62,763 nt of DNA from Capsulimonadales bacterium (GTDB taxonomy: Bacteria > Armatimonadota > Armatimonadia > Armatimonadales > Armatimonadaceae): NCBI GenBank assembly GCA_033762295.1, contig JANRLW010000089.1:1-62763 (forward strand), in the 5' to 3' direction. Both the position numbers and the translations under genes were made by a program. Below are positions 10,433 to 37,099 of this stretch, piece after piece (positions within the stretch are counted from its first letter, which is position 1; each line of letters opens with the position of its first letter). The notes under the pieces were generated by a model. The model had not been told where the DNA came from, did no database searches, and saw only the letters and a list, made by a program, of their open reading frames with translations.

Positions 10433-11761
10433 TTACGGTCGGAAGCGGTCGGGGATTCGGTCCTGACGAAGGAGATCGTCGAGGGTTTCCCGTTCGTAGA
10501 CAACCTCGGCCTGACCGTCGCGGACGAACACGACGGTGGGCCGGGGCAGGCGGTTGTAGTTGGAGGCCATGGCGTGATTGTACGCGCCGGTGGTTTGAAC
10601 GGCGAGGATATCGCCGGTTTCGGTGTCGCCGAGGGGCAGGTTCCAGATCAGGATATCGGTCTCGCAGTGTTTGCCGGCGATGGTAACGACGCGTTCCTTC
10701 GGCTGTGCGGCGCGGTTGGCGACGAGAGCATCGTAGACGGAATCGTAAAGCTGGGGGCGGGGGTTATCGCTCATGCCACCGTCGACGGAGACGTAGAAGC
10801 GGTAGCCGGGTTCCTCCGGGATGCCGACGCGTTTGGTCGCGCCGATGGTGTAGAGCGTGGCGCCGGTTTCGGCGACCAGTGCGCGGCCCGGCTCCTGAAG
10901 GAGGCGGGGCGGCGACACCTGGTATTTTTCCAAGGCGGTTTCCAGGGAGGCGCAGATCCGTTCGGCGAACTCGTCGTAGGTGGGCGGCTGATGTTTTTCG
11001 AGATAGCGGACGCCGAGTCCGCCGCCGATATTGAGTTCTTCCATCGTGTGTCCGGTGGTTTCCCGGATGGTGGCGAGAAAGTTCACCATGACGTCGATCG
11101 CGTCCTCGTGAGATTGGGCGTCCAGAAGCTGGGAGCCGACGTGGCAGTGGATTCCGAGGAGGCGGATGGGAGAGAGTTCGAGGGCTTCTCGGACGGCGGC
11201 GAGGGCCGCGCCGTCGGAAATATTGATGCCGAACTTGGTGTCTTCCTGTCCGGTGCGGATGCGTCGGTGGGTATGCGGGTCGATGCCGGGGGTGACGCGA
11301 AGGAGGATCGGCTGGACGCGCCCGTATTCCCCGGCGATCGTCGCGAGTCGTCGGAGTTCCCAGGGGTTATCGACGACGAACCGACCGACGCCGGCGGCCA
11401 CGCCCTGTCGAATCTCGTCATCGGATTTATTGTTGCCGTGGAAGAGGATCTGTTCGGCGGGGAATCCGGCGGTCAGGGCGGTATGGAGTTCTCCGCCCGA
11501 AGCGACATCGAGCTGGAGTCCTTCCTGTGCGACGAGGAGGGCCATGGCTTGGACGAGGAAGGCTTTTCCGGCGTAGGTCACGACGGATTCACCGGGGTAC
11601 CGTCGGGCGAACGCGGCTTGATAGCGCTGGCAGTTGTCACGGAGGAACGCTTCATCCATGACATAGAGCGGCGTCCCGAAGGTACGGGCGAGTTCGACGG
11701 TGTCGCACCCTCCGATTTCCAGATGTCCTCGATCGTTGATCCGCTGGGTCCCGAGCAGCAT
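10433..11761 (-). CDS. lysA: Diaminopimelate decarboxylase
   Basis: FGTPLYV, YAGKAF (PLP Lys), HCHVGSQ, EPGR, GKHCETD, GAY..MASNYN. Confidence 0.97.
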   Translation of the reverse strand: MLLGTQRINDRGHLEIGGCDTVELARTFGTPLYVMDEAFLRDNCQRYQAAFARRYPGESVVTYAGKAFLVQAMALLVAQEGLQLDVASGGELHTALTAGFPAEQILFHGNNKSDDEIRQGVAAGVGRFVVDNPWELRRLATIAGEYGRVQPILLRVTPGIDPHTHRRIRTGQEDTKFGINISDGAALAAVREALELSPIRLLGIHCHVGSQLLDAQSHEDAIDVMVNFLATIRETTGHTMEELNIGGGLGVRYLEKHQPPTYDEFAERICASLETALEKYQVSPPRLLQEPGRALVAETGATLYTIGATKRVGIPEEPGYRFYVSVDGGMSDNPRPQLYDSVYDALVANRAAQPKERVVTIAGKHCETDILIWNLPLGDTETGDILAVQTTGAYNHAMASNYNRLPRPTVVFVRDGQAEVVYERETLDDLLRQDRIPDRFRP

Positions 11762-11817
11762 GGTTCCTTTCGTCCTTTCGTGCCGACCCCGGCGAGAGGG
11801 GCTTTGGTCCGGGGTGC

Positions 11818-11851
11818 AAAAAGGCGCGACCGCTCAAACAACGGTCACGCC
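11818..11851 (-). promoter_or_regulatory. Terminator-like hairpin in lysA 5' leader
   Basis: Minus strand GGCGTGACCG-N9-CGGTCGCGCC-TTTTT just after a TACAGT -10-like box. Confidence 0.5.
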
Positions 11852-12022
11852 GTCTCGCACTGTACCATGTTCGGGCATCGAATGCCAAAGGAGTATAGGC
11901 TGATATCGACCGGGGTGGTCGGCGCGTAGAGCGTGTTTGTTAAGTCTTTCGAGTGGTCTTTTCCTACCTGCTAATTCGAGCCAGAATAACCGTATGAAAA
12001 GCGATAAACCTGGATCGGAAAA

Positions 12023-12094
12023 TGATCTTCCGTCGAAAGTACGGACAAGCAGATAACAAGCCTCGCCTCATCGGTAAAATTTCGTATCGAGCGA
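12023..12094 (+). repeat. Left copy of 72-bp inverted repeat
   Basis: 68 of 72 positions match the reverse complement of 13494-13564 (3 mismatches, 1 gap; manual alignment). Confidence 0.95.
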
Positions 12095-12120
12095 CTCCAA
12101 ACTCGCACTGAAGTAAACCC

Positions 12121-12149
12121 TTGCGTCCGGCGGACAGAGCCTCTATACT
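12121..12149 (+). promoter_or_regulatory. Sigma70-type promoter of the two-gene cassette
   Basis: TTGCGT-N17-TATACT. Confidence 0.65.
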
Positions 12150-12216
12150 ATTTGTAGTGGGAAAGTGGGAACGGCCCACTTCTCTATGGAGTCGGAAAAT
12201 GAGGGGTGAGAGCGTT

Positions 12217-12804
12217 ATGAGTCTACTGATGGAGACGACGGAATTTAAGGTCGCCGACCAGAAAGGGCGGGTCGCCCTGGGAAGCAAATGGGCGGGGAAG
12301 CGTTTTGCCGTTTATGAGGAGTCGGATGGCAAGGTGATGCTGTCACCGGTTCTGGTTGTGCCAGAAAGCGAACATCCTCTGACCGCATCACGCTTGCGGG
12401 AGAGTTTCGCCTTCCTGGAAGGCCTGACCGACAACTGGGACGGTCGCGGTTCGCTTGCTCCCGACCCGGCGACCATCGCGTCCGCCCGCGAAGCGCTGGG
12501 ACTGCTTCAGGCCAGTGCGCTTGCTCGCGGGATGGGTTGGGTCGAACCGCATATCGGCGCGAACGAGCGCGGTCAGATTACTCTGGAATGGTGGCAGGAG
12601 AATCGCTCCGTCACGGTGTTCATCCGCGCCGAAAACCAGGTGGACTATCTTAAGGCTTGGGGAACCAACATTGAGGCGGAGATGCAGGACGGGGAAATTA
12701 CTACCATCGCCGACTTTATCGCCCTATCGCACTGGCTCAACCCGGGGCAGAGAGCGGGTAGAGCGATTCCTTCGGAATCGGCAGGGGAGGGGCAGGCCAC
12801 ATGA
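12217..12804 (+). CDS. Putative antitoxin/regulator: AbrB/MraZ-like N-terminus fused to uncharacterised LxxLxDNWDG domain
   Basis: KVADQKGRVALG..AGKRFAVYEESDGKVMLSP swapped-hairpin pattern; LEGLTDNWDGRGSLAP...GQITLEWW. Confidence 0.7.
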   Translation: MSLLMETTEFKVADQKGRVALGSKWAGKRFAVYEESDGKVMLSPVLVVPESEHPLTASRLRESFAFLEGLTDNWDGRGSLAPDPATIASAREALGLLQASALARGMGWVEPHIGANERGQITLEWWQENRSVTVFIRAENQVDYLKAWGTNIEAEMQDGEITTIADFIALSHWLNPGQRAGRAIPSESAGEGQAT

Positions 12805-13265
12805 GCGACATTTTGATGCCTTCCCCTGCGGACCCGGTGACCGATGACGAAATCTTGTACCGGGCGCTTTCCGCAGATCCGCGCTATCTCGCCCCGGACG
12901 GACAGGGCGGCTTTCGCATCAGCAGTATGGCCTTCAACGATGCGGGCCGTCGCCCGTCGGTGGACCGGGCCGCGCTCTGCCCCGATGGCGCGGTGGAGAT
13001 ACAGGCGCGCTTCTCTCCCGGAAGCGGCGTTCTGTCACTGGTTGCGCGGGAGGTACGTAGTTTGCAGACGGTCCATGGCGGAACGGGGCTGGTCTACGGG
13101 GTGGATGTGGAACCGGTGCCGCTACCCGACAATCCCGCCCATGCCGAGATATTCGGGCATCCACCTTTCGATACGGACAAGGTGTTCGACCGCATCAAGC
13201 AGGCTCTCGCACGTATCGCAACGGTCGTTATTCTCCCCACCAAATCCGAGACTGATCTGCCCTGA
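12801..13265 (+). CDS. Hypothetical protein, putative ADP-ribosyltransferase-fold toxin
   Basis: ATGA-coupled to upstream gene; DEILYRAL...SSMAF...PSVDR...DNPAHAEI motif order; fold is inference. Confidence 0.65.
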   Translation: MSDILMPSPADPVTDDEILYRALSADPRYLAPDGQGGFRISSMAFNDAGRRPSVDRAALCPDGAVEIQARFSPGSGVLSLVAREVRSLQTVHGGTGLVYGVDVEPVPLPDNPAHAEIFGHPPFDTDKVFDRIKQALARIATVVILPTKSETDLP

Positions 13266-13340
13266 CTCTTGATCCTCCCCCAGTTTCACGTACATTCGAT
13301 CAAAAAGCCATCGCCCGCCGTTGCTCTCCCTTTCCTGCCT

Positions 13341-13480
13341 CTACCTGCTGCGAATACCGACGCTCGAACGTCTCCGGGCTAACGGTCCCCAAAGACGAAT
13401 GCCGACGCGCCCGGTTGTACCAAACCTCGTTCGGTGAACTAACTCCCGCTTCAGGCTTCCGAAAAGTTTGCGTTCTGCCA
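13341..13480 (-). pseudogene. Decayed IS3-family transposase C-terminal fragment
   Basis: LFGSLKRELVHRTRF matches the IS3 integrase-core motif ESFFGSLKRELVHRTRF; degenerate RRRSSVG follows. Confidence 0.7.
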
Positions 13481-13493
13481 TCTGTTCCTCGCT

Positions 13494-13564
13494 TCGCTCG
13501 TTACGATATTTTACGATGAGGCGAGGCTTGTTATCTGCCTGTCCGTACTTTCGACGGAAGATCA
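13494..13564 (-). repeat. Right copy of 72-bp inverted repeat
   Basis: Reverse complement of 12023-12094. Confidence 0.95.
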
Positions 13565-13732
13565 GTTGCGACGTTTGACCGGTCCGGTGGCCGTTGAAAA
13601 GGGCAGAATACGGCAAAAACGGACGGCTCGAAGAAATGTACAGACTTAACAAACAAACGCGTATTTTTGTTTATCGGCGAAGGGGTTCGGATCGATAGTG
13701 AGACGGAAGGGCGTCGAAGGCGTCCGCAATGC

Positions 13733-13858
13733 AAGGAAGGTATTTTATGATTGCTCCGGTCGTGAAAAGTGAGGGCTTCGGGGGAAGCCGTTCGTCGATT
13801 CGTTCCGTTTTCCTTCGGGGGGACGGAACCTGCTTTTCACGACCGGGAGAATCCTGCG
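13733..13858 (+). promoter_or_regulatory. Structured 5' leader (three-way junction) with uORF start; putative translational attenuator
   Basis: Perfect 14-bp stem 13756-13769/13833-13846 enclosing hairpins 13774-13789 and 13802-13829 (cUUCGg loop); overlaps RBS GGGAGA; AAGGAAGG + ATG 13747. Confidence 0.65.
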
Positions 13859-14305
13859 TTGAGTTATTCCGCCAAACGTTTGCAGAAGAAAGAGCGGCGC
13901 GAGGGCCGCGAGTCGGCCTCGTCCCATCGTAACGAGGGAAAGCGAAACGGTGCGCCGGTCGGGGACTGGTTCGCCTGTATTCACTGTGGGCTGCCGGTAC
14001 CGACGGCTGCGCCGGGCACCGAGCATCGCAACCATTGTCCGGCGTGTCTTCGGAGCAGGCATGTCGATGAGGAACCGGGGGACCGGGCTTCGGAGTGCGG
14101 TTCGGTGATGGACCCGATCGCGGTCTGGTCGCGTCCGGGCGGCGACTGGGCGATTATTCATCGTTGCCGGGGATGCGGGACGCTGCATTCCAACCGGATC
14201 GCCGGGGACGATAACGAGGTGGCGCTGGTGGCTCTGGCGACCCGTGCGATCGCGACGCCGCCGTTTCCGCTGAACCGTCTGGCGACGGTGGCGAGCCGGG
14301 AATAG
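13859..14305 (+). CDS. RNHCP domain zinc-binding protein
   Basis: FACIHCG...HRNHCPACLRSRHVD..PGDRAS.C...HRCRGCG...NRIAGDDN; TTG start after GGGAGA. Confidence 0.93.
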   Translation: MSYSAKRLQKKERREGRESASSHRNEGKRNGAPVGDWFACIHCGLPVPTAAPGTEHRNHCPACLRSRHVDEEPGDRASECGSVMDPIAVWSRPGGDWAIIHRCRGCGTLHSNRIAGDDNEVALVALATRAIATPPFPLNRLATVASRE

Positions 14306-23201: not shown

Positions 23202-23393
23202 GTTTAAGTCGCTTCCCTGTCTATTTTCGGATTTTCCCGACGGGGTCCGGGTTCTATACGGATGACGCGGTCACCGGTGGTCAGGTTGCGGCGGTCCGAC
23301 CCTCATTGGTGAGACGGTTTGTTCCATCGTACCATAACGCGGCCTTCCGTCAATGGGTTTTTGCGCAGGTTTCCGCATGGTTTGAGAAAGAAT

Positions 23394-24254
23394 TCACGAG
23401 CCGGCGAGGACGGCCTCAACGGCTTCGCGCATCCGATCGATGGACGGCTCGCGTCCGGTCCAGTGTCGGAAGGAGATCGCGCCCTGTCGAACCAGCATCT
23501 CGATACCGTTCTGTGTTCGGCAGCCGGACTCCCGCGCCTGACGGAGGAGACGGGTTTCGATCGGGTTATAGATCAGATCGACCACGAGCAGTCGTCCTGG
23601 CAGCGTCGCGGGTACGGGCAGGACCTCCTCGGTGTGCGGGGCCATGCCGACACTGGTGGTGTTAACCAGAAGGTCGGCATTTTCGAGGGCGTTCCGGAGG
23701 GCGGGTTCCTCCAGTGCGGTAAGGTCGATGTGTGGGTCCGGGAGTCCGTCGGTGACGGCCCGTACGAGGTCGGCGGCGCGGTTCGGGGTGCGGTTGGCGA
23801 CGATCACGTGCGCTCCGGCTTCGAGGAGGGCGCGGATGACGGCGCGCGCGGACCCGCCTGCGCCAAGAACGACGGCGCGGGTTTGCGGTCGGACGGGCAG
23901 TCCGGCATGATGGAGCGCGGCGAGGAATCCGGGGCCGTCGGTGGATTCGCCGTGGAGGCGGCCCTCGCGATGCACGATGGTGTTGACGGAACCGATGGCG
24001 CGTGCGGATTCGGAGCAGGAGTCGAGGTAGGGCAGAACCCGTTCCTTGAGCGGGACGGTTACGTTAACGCCGACGATATTCAGCGCGCGGACTCCTTCGA
24101 GGGCTTGCCCGACGGATTTCGGGGCGACGGCGAAGGGGACGTAGACCCAGTCGAGGCCGAGGTCGGCGAAGGCGGCGTTGTGCATGGCGGGTGAGGCGGA
24201 GTGGCGTACGGGCCATCCGAACACGCCGACGACGGAGGTGGTTCCCCGGACCAT
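23394..24254 (-). CDS. aroE: Shikimate dehydrogenase
   Basis: GWPVRHSASPAMHN, NVTVPLK, TDGPG, GAGGSARA, NTTSVGM, DLIYNP. Confidence 0.96.
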   Translation of the reverse strand: MVRGTTSVVGVFGWPVRHSASPAMHNAAFADLGLDWVYVPFAVAPKSVGQALEGVRALNIVGVNVTVPLKERVLPYLDSCSESARAIGSVNTIVHREGRLHGESTDGPGFLAALHHAGLPVRPQTRAVVLGAGGSARAVIRALLEAGAHVIVANRTPNRAADLVRAVTDGLPDPHIDLTALEEPALRNALENADLLVNTTSVGMAPHTEEVLPVPATLPGRLLVVDLIYNPIETRLLRQARESGCRTQNGIEMLVRQGAISFRHWTGREPSIDRMREAVEAVLAGS

Positions 24255-34292: not shown

Positions 34293-35237
34293 ATGCTCGG
34301 GCAAAACTTCAGGGGTCAGAATTTTGATGATCGGACGCCGCTGTCGGAGGCGGAGATGCGTCGGGTCATGGATTTGCACGACGAACGGACCGGACTGGGT
34401 TCGGCGGCATCGGTTCGTCGGGCCGCGTCGGCGGACGTTTCGGCGGCGAACCGTCCGACGGTCGGCGATGTGGCGGAGCTTCTGGGGGTAACGCCGGCAG
34501 AGGTGTTGCAGTTACTGGGACGGGTTCGCGAGGAGGAGCGTCAGCGGGCGGCGCGTCGGGCGGAGATGCGGGTTCCGACGCCGCCGCAGGTGACGACCGG
34601 CGCTCCCACGTATTCGGCGGCTCCGCCGGGAACGACGGTCATTCAGAACGTGATCGTCGACTCGCACGCCCACCTTTTCCGGCGGTTTGAGGATCGGAAC
34701 GGCCATTTCACGGCGACGTGGAACTGGGGGGCGTTCTGGTTCGGCCCGCTCTGGTACTTTTACAAAGGGATGTGGGCCAAGGGGCTACTTTACACGTTGC
34801 TTTATTTCACGACGGTCGCGCCGACGTTCGGCACGGTGACGCTGTTGTTTCCGCTCTTCCTGGCGTTGATGGGGAACTTCGACTACTATCTGCTTCGCTG
34901 CCACGATACGCAACTCTGGGACCGGAAACGAACGCTTCCTCGTGCGCCATGGCCGGTTTCGCAGGCGGCTCCCACTCCGTCGGCGGGAACGTTCGAATCG
35001 GGACCGGGCGTTGTGGCGGAACCGGATTTGCATCAGACGGCCCGGAAGCTGCAGGTGCTGCGGGAAACCTACGATCGCGGCCTGATTACGCAGTCGGAAT
35101 TTGAGGAGAAACGGCTTGCTCTGTTGAACGAAGTGGAGAATCACGCGGATTTGAAACGACTGGCGGAAGCGCACCGTCTCGGCCTGCTGACCGAGGAGGA
35201 GTACGAGATCAAACGGGCCGCGCTTCTTTACCGCTGA
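34293..35237 (+). CDS. Membrane protein with DUF2628-like domain and two SHOCT repeats
   Basis: WNWGAFWFGPLWYFYKGMW; GLITQSEFEEKR and GLLTEEEYEIKR. Confidence 0.82.
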   Translation: MLGQNFRGQNFDDRTPLSEAEMRRVMDLHDERTGLGSAASVRRAASADVSAANRPTVGDVAELLGVTPAEVLQLLGRVREEERQRAARRAEMRVPTPPQVTTGAPTYSAAPPGTTVIQNVIVDSHAHLFRRFEDRNGHFTATWNWGAFWFGPLWYFYKGMWAKGLLYTLLYFTTVAPTFGTVTLLFPLFLALMGNFDYYLLRCHDTQLWDRKRTLPRAPWPVSQAAPTPSAGTFESGPGVVAEPDLHQTARKLQVLRETYDRGLITQSEFEEKRLALLNEVENHADLKRLAEAHRLGLLTEEEYEIKRAALLYR

Positions 35238-35254
35238 TTCGGAACGGGGCCGTC

Positions 35255-36061
35255 ATGCGAATCATTCGATATCAGGACGCGATGGGTGTCGTCGGCTTTG
35301 CGGCCGACCGGGGCGACGGAACGGCGCGGGTGGTGGAGGGCGATCTTTTCGGCGAATTCACCGTCACGGAGGCGGTGGCGCAGGTCACGCGTGTGCTGGC
35401 GCCGATCGTTCCGACCGCGATTCTCTGCACGGGGATGAACTACCGGAAGCACGCGGAGGAGACGGGCGCGAAGATTCCGGAGTACCCGGTGTTGTTTGTC
35501 AAGGGTCCGAACAGTGTGCAGGACCCGGACGAACCGATCGTTTTGCCGCGTTTTTTGCGCAGCGACGAGGTGGATTTCGAGTGCGAACTGGCGGTGGTGA
35601 TCGGGCGGCCCTGTAAGAACGTTCGCGCGGAGGACGCGCTGGACTACGTTCTGGGTTATACGTGCGCGAATGATGTTTCGGCGCGCGACTGGCAGATCAC
35701 ACGTGGCGGTTCGCAGTGGTGTCGGGGGAAATTTTTCGATACGTTCTGTCCGCTCGGTCCGGCGCTGGTCACCCCCGACTCGATTCCGGACCCGAACGCT
35801 CTCTCGATCCGGACGGTCTTGAACGGCGAAACGGTTCAGGATTCGACGACGTCGGACATGATTTTCAACGTTCCTCGATTGATCGAGTTTTATTCCGGAA
35901 GCTGCACGCTGTCGCCGGGGACTGTGATTCTGACGGGGACGCCGTCGGGGGTCGGTATGGCGCGTAAGCCACCGCTCTGGCTGAAGGGCGGCGACGTGGT
36001 GACGATCGAGATCGAGGGGATCGGTTCGCTGACGAATCCGGTGGTCGAGGAATCGATTTAG
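35255..36061 (+). CDS. Fumarylacetoacetate hydrolase family protein
   Basis: GMNYRKH, VDFECELAVVIG, NDVSARDWQ, GKFFDTFCPLGP, TGTPSGVG. Confidence 0.95.
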   Translation: MRIIRYQDAMGVVGFAADRGDGTARVVEGDLFGEFTVTEAVAQVTRVLAPIVPTAILCTGMNYRKHAEETGAKIPEYPVLFVKGPNSVQDPDEPIVLPRFLRSDEVDFECELAVVIGRPCKNVRAEDALDYVLGYTCANDVSARDWQITRGGSQWCRGKFFDTFCPLGPALVTPDSIPDPNALSIRTVLNGETVQDSTTSDMIFNVPRLIEFYSGSCTLSPGTVILTGTPSGVGMARKPPLWLKGGDVVTIEIEGIGSLTNPVVEESI

Positions 36062-36091
36062 GGTCGATCCGATGGCGGTCCGGGGGGCGAC

Positions 36092-37099
36092 CTACCACTC
36101 GCCCTTGCGGGACCGGGTCATGAGCGAGGCGACCGCTTCGCGCGGGGCGAGTCCGTCGAACAGAAGCGCGGCGACGGTCCGGCAGACGGGCATTTCGACT
36201 CCCTTTCGTTCGGCGAGCGAGCGCAGCGCCCTGGCGGTGGGCACCCCTTCGGCGACCTGTCCGAGCCGTTGCAGCAGATCGTCGAGTGGTTCTCCCCGGG
36301 CGATTCCCTCTCCGACCCGCCAGTTTCTGGACAATCGGGATGCGGCAGTGGCCATGAGGTCTCCGACGCCGGCCAGTCCGAAGAAGGTTTCGGCGTCCGC
36401 TCCGAGAGCGACGCCGAAGCGGGTCATTTCCGCGAGCCCGCGAGTTAGCAGGGCGGCCTTGGTATTCTCTCCGAAGCCGAGTCCGTCGGAGACGCCTGCG
36501 GCAATGGCGAGGACATTTTTGACGGCTCCCCCGATTTCGACTCCGATCCGGTCGTTCCCGGTGTAGACCCGATAAGTCGGGCCGTTGAAGCGGTCGGCGA
36601 CATGTTCGGCGGCGGTTCGTTCGGGGCAGGCGGCGACGGCGGCGGTCGGGATGCCTCGGGCGACTTCGAGGGCCAGATTCGGGCCGGACAGGGCGACGAT
36701 ATCGGGCGCGACCCGGTCGGTTCCCAGGACGTCTTCGGCGACTTCGGCGGGGAGCAGACAGGAGTCGGCTTCCAGGCCTTTAGCTGCCAGGACGAGGAAT
36801 CGGGCGGAATCGGGGAGGGGCAGGCAGCGGGTCAGGACGTCTCGGACGCCGGCCGAGGGCACGGCGACGACGAGCATTTCGGCACCGGCGAGGGCTTCGT
36901 TCAGGTCGCCGGTCGGGGCGACGGATTCGGGTAGCGGGAATCCGGGCAAGTATCGACGGTTTTCCCGGTGTTCACGCAGGGCGTGCACCTGGGATTCGTT
37001 TCGGTCCCAGAGGGCGACGGATCGGTGGTTCTGCGCCAGAAGCAGGGCGAGGGCGGTCCCCCAGGAACCGCCCCCGAGTACGGTCGTTCGGCCATCCAT
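36092..37099 (-). CDS. gpsA: NAD(P)H-dependent glycerol-3-phosphate dehydrogenase
   Basis: GGGSWGTALA, SGPNLA, GAVKNVLAI, GVGDL.AT..S.LSRN. Confidence 0.97.
   Translation of the reverse strand: MDGRTTVLGGGSWGTALALLLAQNHRSVALWDRNESQVHALREHRENRRYLPGFPLPESVAPTGDLNEALAGAEMLVVAVPSAGVRDVLTRCLPLPDSARFLVLAAKGLEADSCLLPAEVAEDVLGTDRVAPDIVALSGPNLALEVARGIPTAAVAACPERTAAEHVADRFNGPTYRVYTGNDRIGVEIGGAVKNVLAIAAGVSDGLGFGENTKAALLTRGLAEMTRFGVALGADAETFFGLAGVGDLMATAASRLSRNWRVGEGIARGEPLDDLLQRLGQVAEGVPTARALRSLAERKGVEMPVCRTVAALLFDGLAPREAVASLMTRSRKGEW

Follow-up and report, generated by a model that had tools for sequence, protein, structure and literature searches.

The stretch of DNA analysed here, called the window throughout, comprises 62,763 nucleotides of a Capsulimonadales bacterium (contig JANRLW010000089.1 of assembly GCA_033762295.1). 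It carries two coupled genes which a sequence-only reading had proposed to be a new toxin-antitoxin or defence pair, the first regulator-like and the second resembling ADP-ribosyltransferases (ARTs). The anatomy described there agrees with the sequence: gene 1 (protein P0001) and gene 2 (protein P0002) are co-oriented, and the ATG of gene 2 lies within the stop codon of gene 1, forming an ATGA overlap at 12801-12804. The long open reading frame (ORF) that contains gene 1 extends from a TTG (12121) as far as the stop codon at 12804; we placed the start of gene 1 at the ATG at 12217 since alignment with homologues supports that start, and a GAGGGG sequence lies about 10 nt 5' of it. The motifs that had been named for the two proteins, DQKGRVALG, NWDGRGSLAP and ITLEWW for gene 1 and LYR, SSMAF, PSVDR and HAEI for gene 2, were all found, and all of them fall on conserved alignment columns. 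Each gene has many homologues and the two are adjacent elsewhere too; judged by sequence comparison, the pair is more than a chance arrangement. The coordinates of the features discussed below are collected in Table 1.

Table 1. Features of the gene pair and its surroundings (positions in the window; a tilde marks approximate residue limits).
Feature	Position	Strand	Details
Promoter-like site	12121-12149	+	TTGCGT (12121-12126), 17-nt spacer, TATACT (12144-12149)
Putative operator	12156-12180	+	AGTGGGAA twice in tandem (12156-12171) and palindrome at 12164-12180
Gene 1, putative antitoxin and repressor	12217-12804	+	195 aa
Gene 1, N-terminal beta-rich domain	12241-12357	+	residues ~9-47, from the model
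Gene 1, alpha/beta NWDG domain	12385-12741	+	residues ~57-175, from the model
Gene 2, ART-fold putative toxin	12801-13265	+	154 aa
Inverted repeat, left arm	12020-12094		72-75 nt, 93-94% identical; 59 nt at 93% in a shorter call
Inverted repeat, right arm	13494-13567		72-75 nt, 93-94% identical
Probable relic of an IS3-type transposase C-terminus	13280-13465	-	blastn match to contig C51; assigned by eye

Gene 2 gave no usable match in Pfam, NCBIfam or PHROGs (the sole PHROGs match for the pair had an E-value of 0.12), the RES-domain Pfam profile did not match it, and sequence searches of the PDB with the single protein and with a profile returned nothing for it. Rfam, run on positions 11500-14300, recognised no family and gave one sub-threshold chance match. 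Relatives were found in large numbers. A word-indexed search yielded 160 at E≤0.001 among 272 candidates, and a profile of 61 relatives, compared with 1.84 billion cluster representatives, matched 949 of them at E≤0.001, each standing for a cluster at the 50% identity level; 611 of these were matched at E≤1e-10 and 167 at E≤1e-30. The family is widespread, yet unseen by Pfam, NCBIfam and, as far as the putative toxin is concerned, PADLOC. In the ESM Atlas we found only clusters labelled 'hypothetical protein', from Acidobacteriota, Pseudomonadota and Planctomycetota. Since the best 150 of the 949 representatives are all 108-266 aa long, and none of these 150 is fused to a delivery domain, the relatives of gene 2 are apparently free-standing proteins.

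An AlphaFold2 model of gene 2, built from the 61-row alignment, had a predicted local distance difference test score (pLDDT) of 94.4 and a predicted template-modelling score (pTM) of 0.88, and it shows the split beta-sheet of the ART/NAD+-binding fold. We compared it with 48,161 representative chains in a structure search independent of Foldseek, and the top ten rows were all ART-fold proteins: KptA (score 7.3; root-mean-square deviation 2.8, 88 residues aligned), Tse2 as second-best match (6.6; 3.1, 104 aligned), AvrPphF ORF2 (5.8), two Tpt1 entries (5.4 and 5.3), TreX (4.7), diphtheria toxin (4.7), Scabin (4.3), the VPA0770 toxin (4.2) and TreTu (4.2). For Tse2, AvrPphF ORF2, TreX and VPA0770, whose entry titles do not state it, the ART fold is what we take them to have. 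Pertussis toxin, NarE, DarT, CopC and EcPltA appeared lower in the same list. Matches to the NAD+-binding lobe of Tpt1/KptA rank highest and outnumber the others; they include NAD- and ADP-ribose (ADPR)-bound entries. In Foldseek, the weak top rows included an Xre-RES complex (first row, E 0.19), KptA/Tpt1 and cholera toxin; against viral models no match reached E≤0.001, the best being an unnamed protein at E 0.023. These comparisons support the assignment of the predicted structure of gene 2 to the ART fold, as had been proposed from its motifs.

Seven residues of gene 2 (R21, S53, R56, R86, H114, F129 and L136) are invariant across the 61 sequences, and R21, S53, D55, R56, R86, N111 and H114 are at least 90% conserved in 148 more distant representatives. 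R21 lies at the end of the first core strand (18-23), S53, within PSVDR, on the next core strand (53-56), and the invariant H114 at the start of a later strand (114-120). The alignment with heat-labile enterotoxin starts at model residue 18 and chain residue 4, and that with cholera toxin at 15 and 1; because the starts coincide in this way, R21 would stand opposite Arg7, the residue named in the title of PDB entry 1ltg, a correspondence drawn from the alignment starts and not from a residue-level alignment. An arginine on strand 1, as expected of the R-S-E clade of ARTs, is thus present. The strand-1 arginine and the strand-2 serine that had been proposed for gene 2 are both invariant; the catalytic glutamate that HAEI would imply varies in distant members. 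Among the 61 sequences no glutamate is invariant where strand 114-120 begins; E104, conserved in at least 90% of them, lies on a different strand.

That the closest structures belong to Tpt1/KptA, a family of RNA-repair enzymes, raises the question whether the pair might encode a non-toxic enzyme and its regulator, for instance a Tpt1-like activity that modifies or repairs RNA or DNA ends. PDB titles in this family include NAD-bound and 5'-p-ADPR-DNA complexes, so that the fold acts on nucleic-acid phosphates, and the conserved operator described below implies that the operon is regulated. Gene 2 nevertheless aligns only to residues ~85-182 of the Tpt1/KptA chains. Their N-terminal lobe is absent from its 154 residues, so that the two-lobe architecture is lacking as is a match to the family profile in Pfam or NCBIfam; strand 1 bears an arginine instead of a histidine, and there is no sequence similarity. 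Moreover, unlike Tpt1/KptA, gene 2 is encoded in an accessory insertion together with a predicted binding partner. Several features are characteristic of toxin-antitoxin pairs, namely a regulator predicted with high confidence to bind the conserved face of its enzyme, a patchy distribution, decayed copies and the insertion context, and we consider a non-toxic enzyme quite improbable.

The matches to TreX and TreTu, two ART toxins of Rhs proteins, would be expected if the pair were what is left of a polymorphic toxin and immunity cassette from contact-dependent bacterial competition. In the TreTu/TriTu and TreX/TriX pairs, however, the gene order is the reverse of that seen here, where the immunity-like gene comes first. 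The toxin candidate in the window is free-standing and, like the 150 best representatives of its family, has no delivery domain; its immunity-like partner has a regulator-type N-terminus fused to it. Conservation of the promoter and operator, together with a putative DNA-binding-type N-terminus, fits a toxin-antitoxin module, and the likeness to the Rhs pairs amounts to a common fold. Such an origin therefore seems very improbable to us.

Gene 1 likewise had no usable match in Pfam, NCBIfam or PHROGs, and PDB searches with its sequence and with a profile gave chance-level rows only. The word-indexed search found 63 relatives at E≤0.001 among 427 candidates. The sole family matched by gene 1 is PDC-M32A of PADLOC, and the match (E 6.2e-5) covers positions 264-367 of the 375 of the profile, in its C-terminal part. 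In the model of gene 1 (pLDDT 85.5), the NWDG domain consists of a helix, five strands and a helix. No PDB structure matched this protein in Foldseek at E≤0.001; in structure comparison, the NWDG domain resembles small alpha/beta sandwiches, including small immunity and chaperone proteins, and the VIA lists for gene 1 span residues 57-181 only. We read this likeness of a predicted domain as that of a generic binding fold and not as homology. The NWDG domain also occurs in one 420-aa protein fused to PF07394, probably a gene-call fusion and weak evidence either way.

The N-terminus of gene 1 had been described as AbrB/MraZ-like. In the monomer model, residues 12-13 and 19-20 form short strands, residues 23-25 a turn, and residues 29-34 and 40-45 two further strands. 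The AbrB-like features that are left are the beta-beta-alpha-beta-beta order, the KGR-x-x-LG motif and a weak Foldseek row for SpoVT (rank 2, E 0.14), whereas every sequence test was negative. Pfam AbrB/MazE matched none of 43 gene-1 homologues, although matches up to E≤1 were considered; PF04014 was absent from the genome as a whole in a search whose controls were matched in 9 of 14 genomes; a PDB search with a profile of the N-terminus detected no AbrB/MazE protein; and hhalign of the N-terminus against ten genuine PF04014 domains from related genomes gave a probability of 2.4%. We therefore did not file the domain under AbrB/MazE (PF04014); only the topology of the model and the KGR motif fit that label.

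We then considered whether the two proteins could interact. Three co-fold runs of gene 1 with gene 2 gave values of the interaction prediction score from aligned errors (ipSAE) of 0.86, 0.85 and 0.86, compared with 0.01 for the best of three controls. Of 157 solved complexes, 116 attained the ipSAE mark, as did 2 of 215 mismatched pairs; these counts are only roughly valid here because our own alignments were used. The runs share at least 97% of their contacts and the partner pLDDT is at least 87; PDB sequence searches with both proteins detected no similar solved complex. On the side of gene 1, the predicted interface comprises residue 66, residues 75-80 (DGRGSL of the NWDG motif, D75 being invariant), residues 112-118, of which N116 and E117 are invariant, and the sheet as far as residue 158. 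On the side of gene 2, it takes in residues 24-53, where both S53 and the conserved AFND..RRPS stretch lie, as well as residues 84-91 and helix 126-139 at the C-terminus. Predicted contacts involve D75, N116, E117, L145 and I152 of gene 1 and residues 46-48 and 130-135 of gene 2. The co-fold thereby sets the NWDG and NER motifs against the conserved AFxD..PS loop of gene 2. As a prediction and not a proof, the co-fold supports direct binding of gene 1 to gene 2, and it favours the NWDG domain as the neutraliser, one of the two roles that had been suggested for it.

The region upstream of gene 1 contains a weak, promoter-like site. Both hexamers of the promoter that the sequence-only reading had assigned to the pair are present, with the 17-nt spacer, and the -10-like hexamer is position-conserved in all five distinct homologous upstream regions examined (the window, L001, L002, the L020/21/22 group and the L023/24 group). 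Its -35 hexamer, however, agrees with the consensus at only three of six positions, which explains why a consensus promoter scan left the site below threshold and did not report it. Just 3' of the -10 hexamer, AGTGGGAA is repeated directly, and its second copy gives rise to the palindrome AGTGGG-AACGG-CCCACT. In the same five of five regions, the interval from the -10 box to the ribosome-binding site contains a GTGGG(A)-N-(T)CCCAC palindrome, the common order being -10-like hexamer, 6-10 nt, palindrome, ribosome-binding site and ATG. The tandem duplication of the half-site is seen in the window alone, the homologous loci having one palindrome. Conservation of the palindrome points, on comparative grounds, to a site at which a protein binds and controls the operon. 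It argues for the autoregulation that had been surmised, and the protein most readily expected to bind there would be gene 1, through its N-terminal domain.

We next examined how regularly the two families occur together. Twelve genome loci were found by a search with the gene 2 protein and six metagenome loci by a search with gene 1. In eight of the twelve, tblastn placed an NWDG domain immediately upstream on the same strand; two more (L007 and L012) have an NWDG protein upstream according to their PDC-M32A matches, which brings the adjacency to 10 of 12. The upstream position is occupied by an unassigned 182-aa ORF in L009, and L008 is a fragment. Starting from gene 1, gene 2 was found downstream in five of the six metagenome loci. 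Many gene-1 and gene-2 relatives lie on contigs of matching length, and one pair, from an Armatimonadetes metagenome-assembled genome (MAG), bears the consecutive locus tags IT210_15985 and IT210_15990. Overlaps of 4 nt between the paired genes recur in L002 and L012, and also between the first two genes of L026. Thus the co-occurrence of the two families, predicted from a single locus, is borne out, and the adjacent, co-oriented and coupled small genes that co-occur across genomes have the arrangement of type II toxin-antitoxin systems.

Three architectures were distinguished. The form in the window, a KGR-type N-terminus followed by the NWDG domain, has its nearest relatives in two MAGs of Chthonomonadaceae, L001 and L002, with the two proteins 59% and 70% identical. 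The second is a three-gene operon that encodes a TIGR04255-family protein (E 3e-42 in L003, 3.1e-17 in L007 and 4.8e-12 in L012), an NWDG protein with a different N-terminus and an ART-like protein. MAGs of Chloroflexota, Phycisphaerae and deltaproteobacteria carry it, and we read it from the ORFs of the P2-like (Peduoviridae) Ralstonia phage YO139_2 (L026; ON170239.1, record positions 34615-36449). Three-gene loci are L003 (4684-6471), L004, L005, L007, L010, L011, L012 and L026 (194-2061), often with 4-nt overlaps. The phage operon lies at most about 2 kb from the end of the unannotated record, a site that may be an accessory or defence cargo position. Going by gene order, this operon is a first conserved genomic context of TIGR04255, a family on which we found no literature in searchable papers; a TIGR04255 search of the genome under study gave no matches, but neither did the control genomes, which makes this negative uninformative. 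The third architecture is the smallest: a 114-aa NWDG-only protein overlapping a 110-aa ART-like protein (L044, 3643-4309, from IMG/VR). On its viral contig of about 55 kb, this pair has an M15 peptidase gene on one side and a tail-fibre-sized gene of 934 aa on the other. A second IMG/VR contig (L045) is near-identical, the ORFs having been read on one of the two. Because the three architectures share just these, the invariant core is the NWDG domain and the ART-like protein.

The family spans Armatimonadota, Chloroflexota, Planctomycetota, Acidobacteriota, Pseudomonadota and phages. Scans found no match in 72,556 plasmids and one in 50,697 phage records, and a viral scan with a distant family member found none. 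Gene 2 is single-copy in the genome under study, and 2 of 32 genomes of the same taxonomic family carry a match. In the second of these (G001) the matches are fragments or lie at contig ends, which suggests repeated or mobile copies and decay. Its contigs C56 and C61 (L042 and L043) hold a second, more distant NWDG/ART pair cut by the contig ends, and its contig C183 a 74-aa C-terminal fragment of a close gene-2 homologue (L041, 1510-1734). Decayed copies were seen in L025, L041 and L010. In L025 (294-743 and 833-1192, minus strand), a truncated and N-terminally altered gene 1 stands without gene 2 beside a Fic/DOC-domain gene on the opposite strand; this gene-1 homologue is probably a decayed copy.

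The context in the window is consistent with a mobile cassette, as had been supposed. The pair lies between lysA and SmpB on one side and an RNHCP-domain gene and a SpoU methylase gene on the other. In G003, another genome of this taxonomic family, about 0.5 kb separates lysA from the RNHCP gene, versus 2.2 kb here, and the intervening sequence does not align; we deduce an insertion of about 1.7 kb. At both edges of the insertion the guanine-plus-cytosine content drops from ~0.62-0.67 to 0.50-0.52, and an inverted repeat brackets the gene pair, with a whole span of 1,548 bp.

Next, we asked how the pair relates to described systems. In PADLOC scans, PDC-M32A was matched by NWDG proteins and PDC-M32B by ART-like proteins; otherwise there were two marginal AbiEi rows, both for the ART-like protein of L003 (E 0.011 and 0.042). 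The clearest case is the L007 pair (M32A E 7.1e-11, M32B E 7.3e-6). Eleven of the 148 gene-2 representatives match PDC-M32B weakly (best E 5.6e-5), further weak matches were also found, and P0002 itself matched no PADLOC model. The window and PDC-M32 share a two-gene unit of the same gene order, an NWDG domain that aligns to positions ~255-367 of the 375-position M32A profiles, and gene-2 relatives that align with M32B. They differ in that the matches are weak and cover the C-terminal third of M32A only, so that neither gene matches its profile over the full length; in that gene 1 of the window has a short, different and putatively DNA-binding-type N-terminus; and in that PADLOC would not call the window locus. 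From these alignments the gene pair and candidate PDC-M32 appear to be related, only distantly. The PDC set consists of 145 candidate systems that were traced from genes lying within BREX, DISARM and type I restriction-modification loci (bioRxiv 10.1101/2024.01.29.577857). The term 'PDC-M' is absent from the main text of that preprint, whose supplementary tables may describe PDC-M32, and the only appearance of PDC-M32 that we found in the literature is as tabulated PADLOC matches in Sinorhizobium prophages (PMC12429752).

A possible reading, to which we attach clearly less than even weight, is that the pair is primarily an anti-phage abortive-infection system and a divergent branch of PDC-M32, in which gene 1 would hold an ART effector until infection. 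The PADLOC matches of both genes point in this direction, since the gene-2 relatives that match PDC-M32B match no other PADLOC family, as do the defence loci from which the PDC genes derive, the operon near the end of the Ralstonia phage record and the minimal pair between the M15 peptidase and tail-fibre-sized genes. PDC-M32, however, is itself a candidate only, the toxin candidate of the window matches no PADLOC model, its neighbours are housekeeping and not defence genes, and the family is scarce among the plasmid and phage records scanned. This reading overlaps with a toxin-antitoxin module and differs from it in the selected function only.

Among established systems, RES-Xre, whose toxin degrades NAD+, offers a close parallel: an ART-fold toxin is neutralised by an upstream antitoxin whose DNA-binding domain binds its own promoter, as is predicted here. 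An Xre-RES complex was also the top Foldseek row for gene 2. Gene 2 differs in lacking a RES Pfam match and in its conserved residues (R, S, R, R and H), and gene 1 has a beta-rich N-terminus and an alpha/beta sandwich in place of a helix-turn-helix/Xre or DUF2384-type domain. In DarTG, by contrast, DarG neutralises enzymatically through a macrodomain, whereas direct binding by a non-enzymatic domain is predicted here, and there is no sequence relationship. ParT and CmdT belong to further ART toxin-antitoxin or defence systems. A literature search on ADP-ribosyltransferase toxin-antitoxin systems with AbrB and immunity found no description of the gene pair. Hence the claim of an undescribed system needs qualifying: the pair matches no described and validated system, but it has weak kinship to both genes of a candidate one. 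The kind of system, an ART-fold toxin with a DNA-binding and directly neutralising antitoxin, is already known from RES-Xre; for the protein family, the NWDG immunity domain and its modular variants, there is no description in the libraries and literature searched, where PADLOC holds a distant candidate cousin.

What we observed at this locus and its homologues, namely how the genes are arranged, which fold class gene 2 belongs to, that the adjacency and an operator-like palindrome are conserved, and that the pair sits in an insertion, leads us to favour one explanation. The pair is probably an autoregulated module of the type II toxin-antitoxin kind, carried on the insertion, with an ART-fold toxin, an NWDG neutraliser and repression through the palindrome. 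We infer that gene 2 would be toxic by ADP-ribosylating a cellular target with NAD+ or, less likely, by destroying NAD+. The target would most likely be nucleic acid, because the nearest structure is the NAD lobe of Tpt1/KptA and invariant arginines are available for phosphate contacts. In the predicted complex, the NWDG domain would bind gene 2 directly and so neutralise it, using its beta-sheet and the loops that hold D75 and N116-E117, the contacts falling on the conserved 41-53 loop, residues 84-91 and the C-terminal helix of gene 2. The N-terminal domain, probably as a dimer, may bind GTGGG-N5-CCCAC just 3' of the -10 hexamer and repress the operon. Loss of the antitoxin upon shut-off of host expression, phage infection or loss of the element would then free the toxin and cause growth arrest.

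Several observations weigh against this explanation. Gene 2 has no sequence-level link to any ART family in Pfam, NCBIfam or the PDB, and Foldseek against the PDB gave no match for it at E≤0.001. For Tse2, its second-best structural match, we know of no demonstrated ART activity. The canonical catalytic glutamate cannot be placed, E116 of HAEI being L, Q, R or I in distant members. In the predicted complex, R21 and H114 are not among the confident contacts, so that occlusion of the catalytic pocket by gene 1, plausible as it is from the model, is only partly supported. Finally, the argument for DNA binding comes from the conserved palindrome, since the N-terminal domain failed the AbrB/MazE tests. 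The lack of an assignable glutamate and of similarity to ART families would also suit a protein of ART fold that is not an NAD+-dependent enzyme and acts by another route, with gene 1 as its binding inhibitor. We consider this unlikely, given that the best structural matches are to an NAD+-binding lobe, NAD- and ADPR-bound entries included, and that the strand-1 arginine and strand-2 serine typical of R-S-E ARTs are invariant.

A bolder interpretation, which we put forward as speculative and rather doubtful, is that gene 2 founds a large unrecognised clade of minimal ART enzymes which would attach ADP-ribose to the ends or bases of nucleic acids and so act as effectors of abortive infection. 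The NWDG domain would then be an immunity module wired to different control devices, namely an operator-binding domain here, the TIGR04255 protein in the three-gene operons and none on phages, and PDC-M32 would be one branch. ART-fold toxins (DarT, RES, ParT, CmdT and Rhs tips) recur as bacterial conflict weapons, and each new clade has so far brought to light a new target or a new chemistry. The family is directly testable, since the partner is compact and modelled with confidence and the operator can be recognised. If active, it would assign a function to candidate PDC-M32 and provide a first functional context for the TIGR04255 family that accompanies its distant relatives.

Some further features surround the pair. 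Each arm of the inverted repeat holds a small hairpin (TCCGT..ACGGA). We considered whether the arms are the ends of a transposable unit; no target-site duplication was seen at their ends, and no further copies were found in the 5.16 Mb assembly or in the homologous loci examined. The Pfam search of the ORF at the probable transposase relic gave no match. By blastn, this sequence is 89% identical to contig C51 over 153 nt and 100% identical over 39 nt, and an ORF on C51 ends there in a transposase-like C-terminus; next to this related relic (C51, ~23290-23770) are a PIN-domain-like (VapC-type) ORF and an integrase-like fragment. The RNHCP-domain protein directly 3' of the insertion (13769-14305, plus strand; Pfam E 1.5e-38) has a low-complexity, basic N-terminus of about 65 residues.

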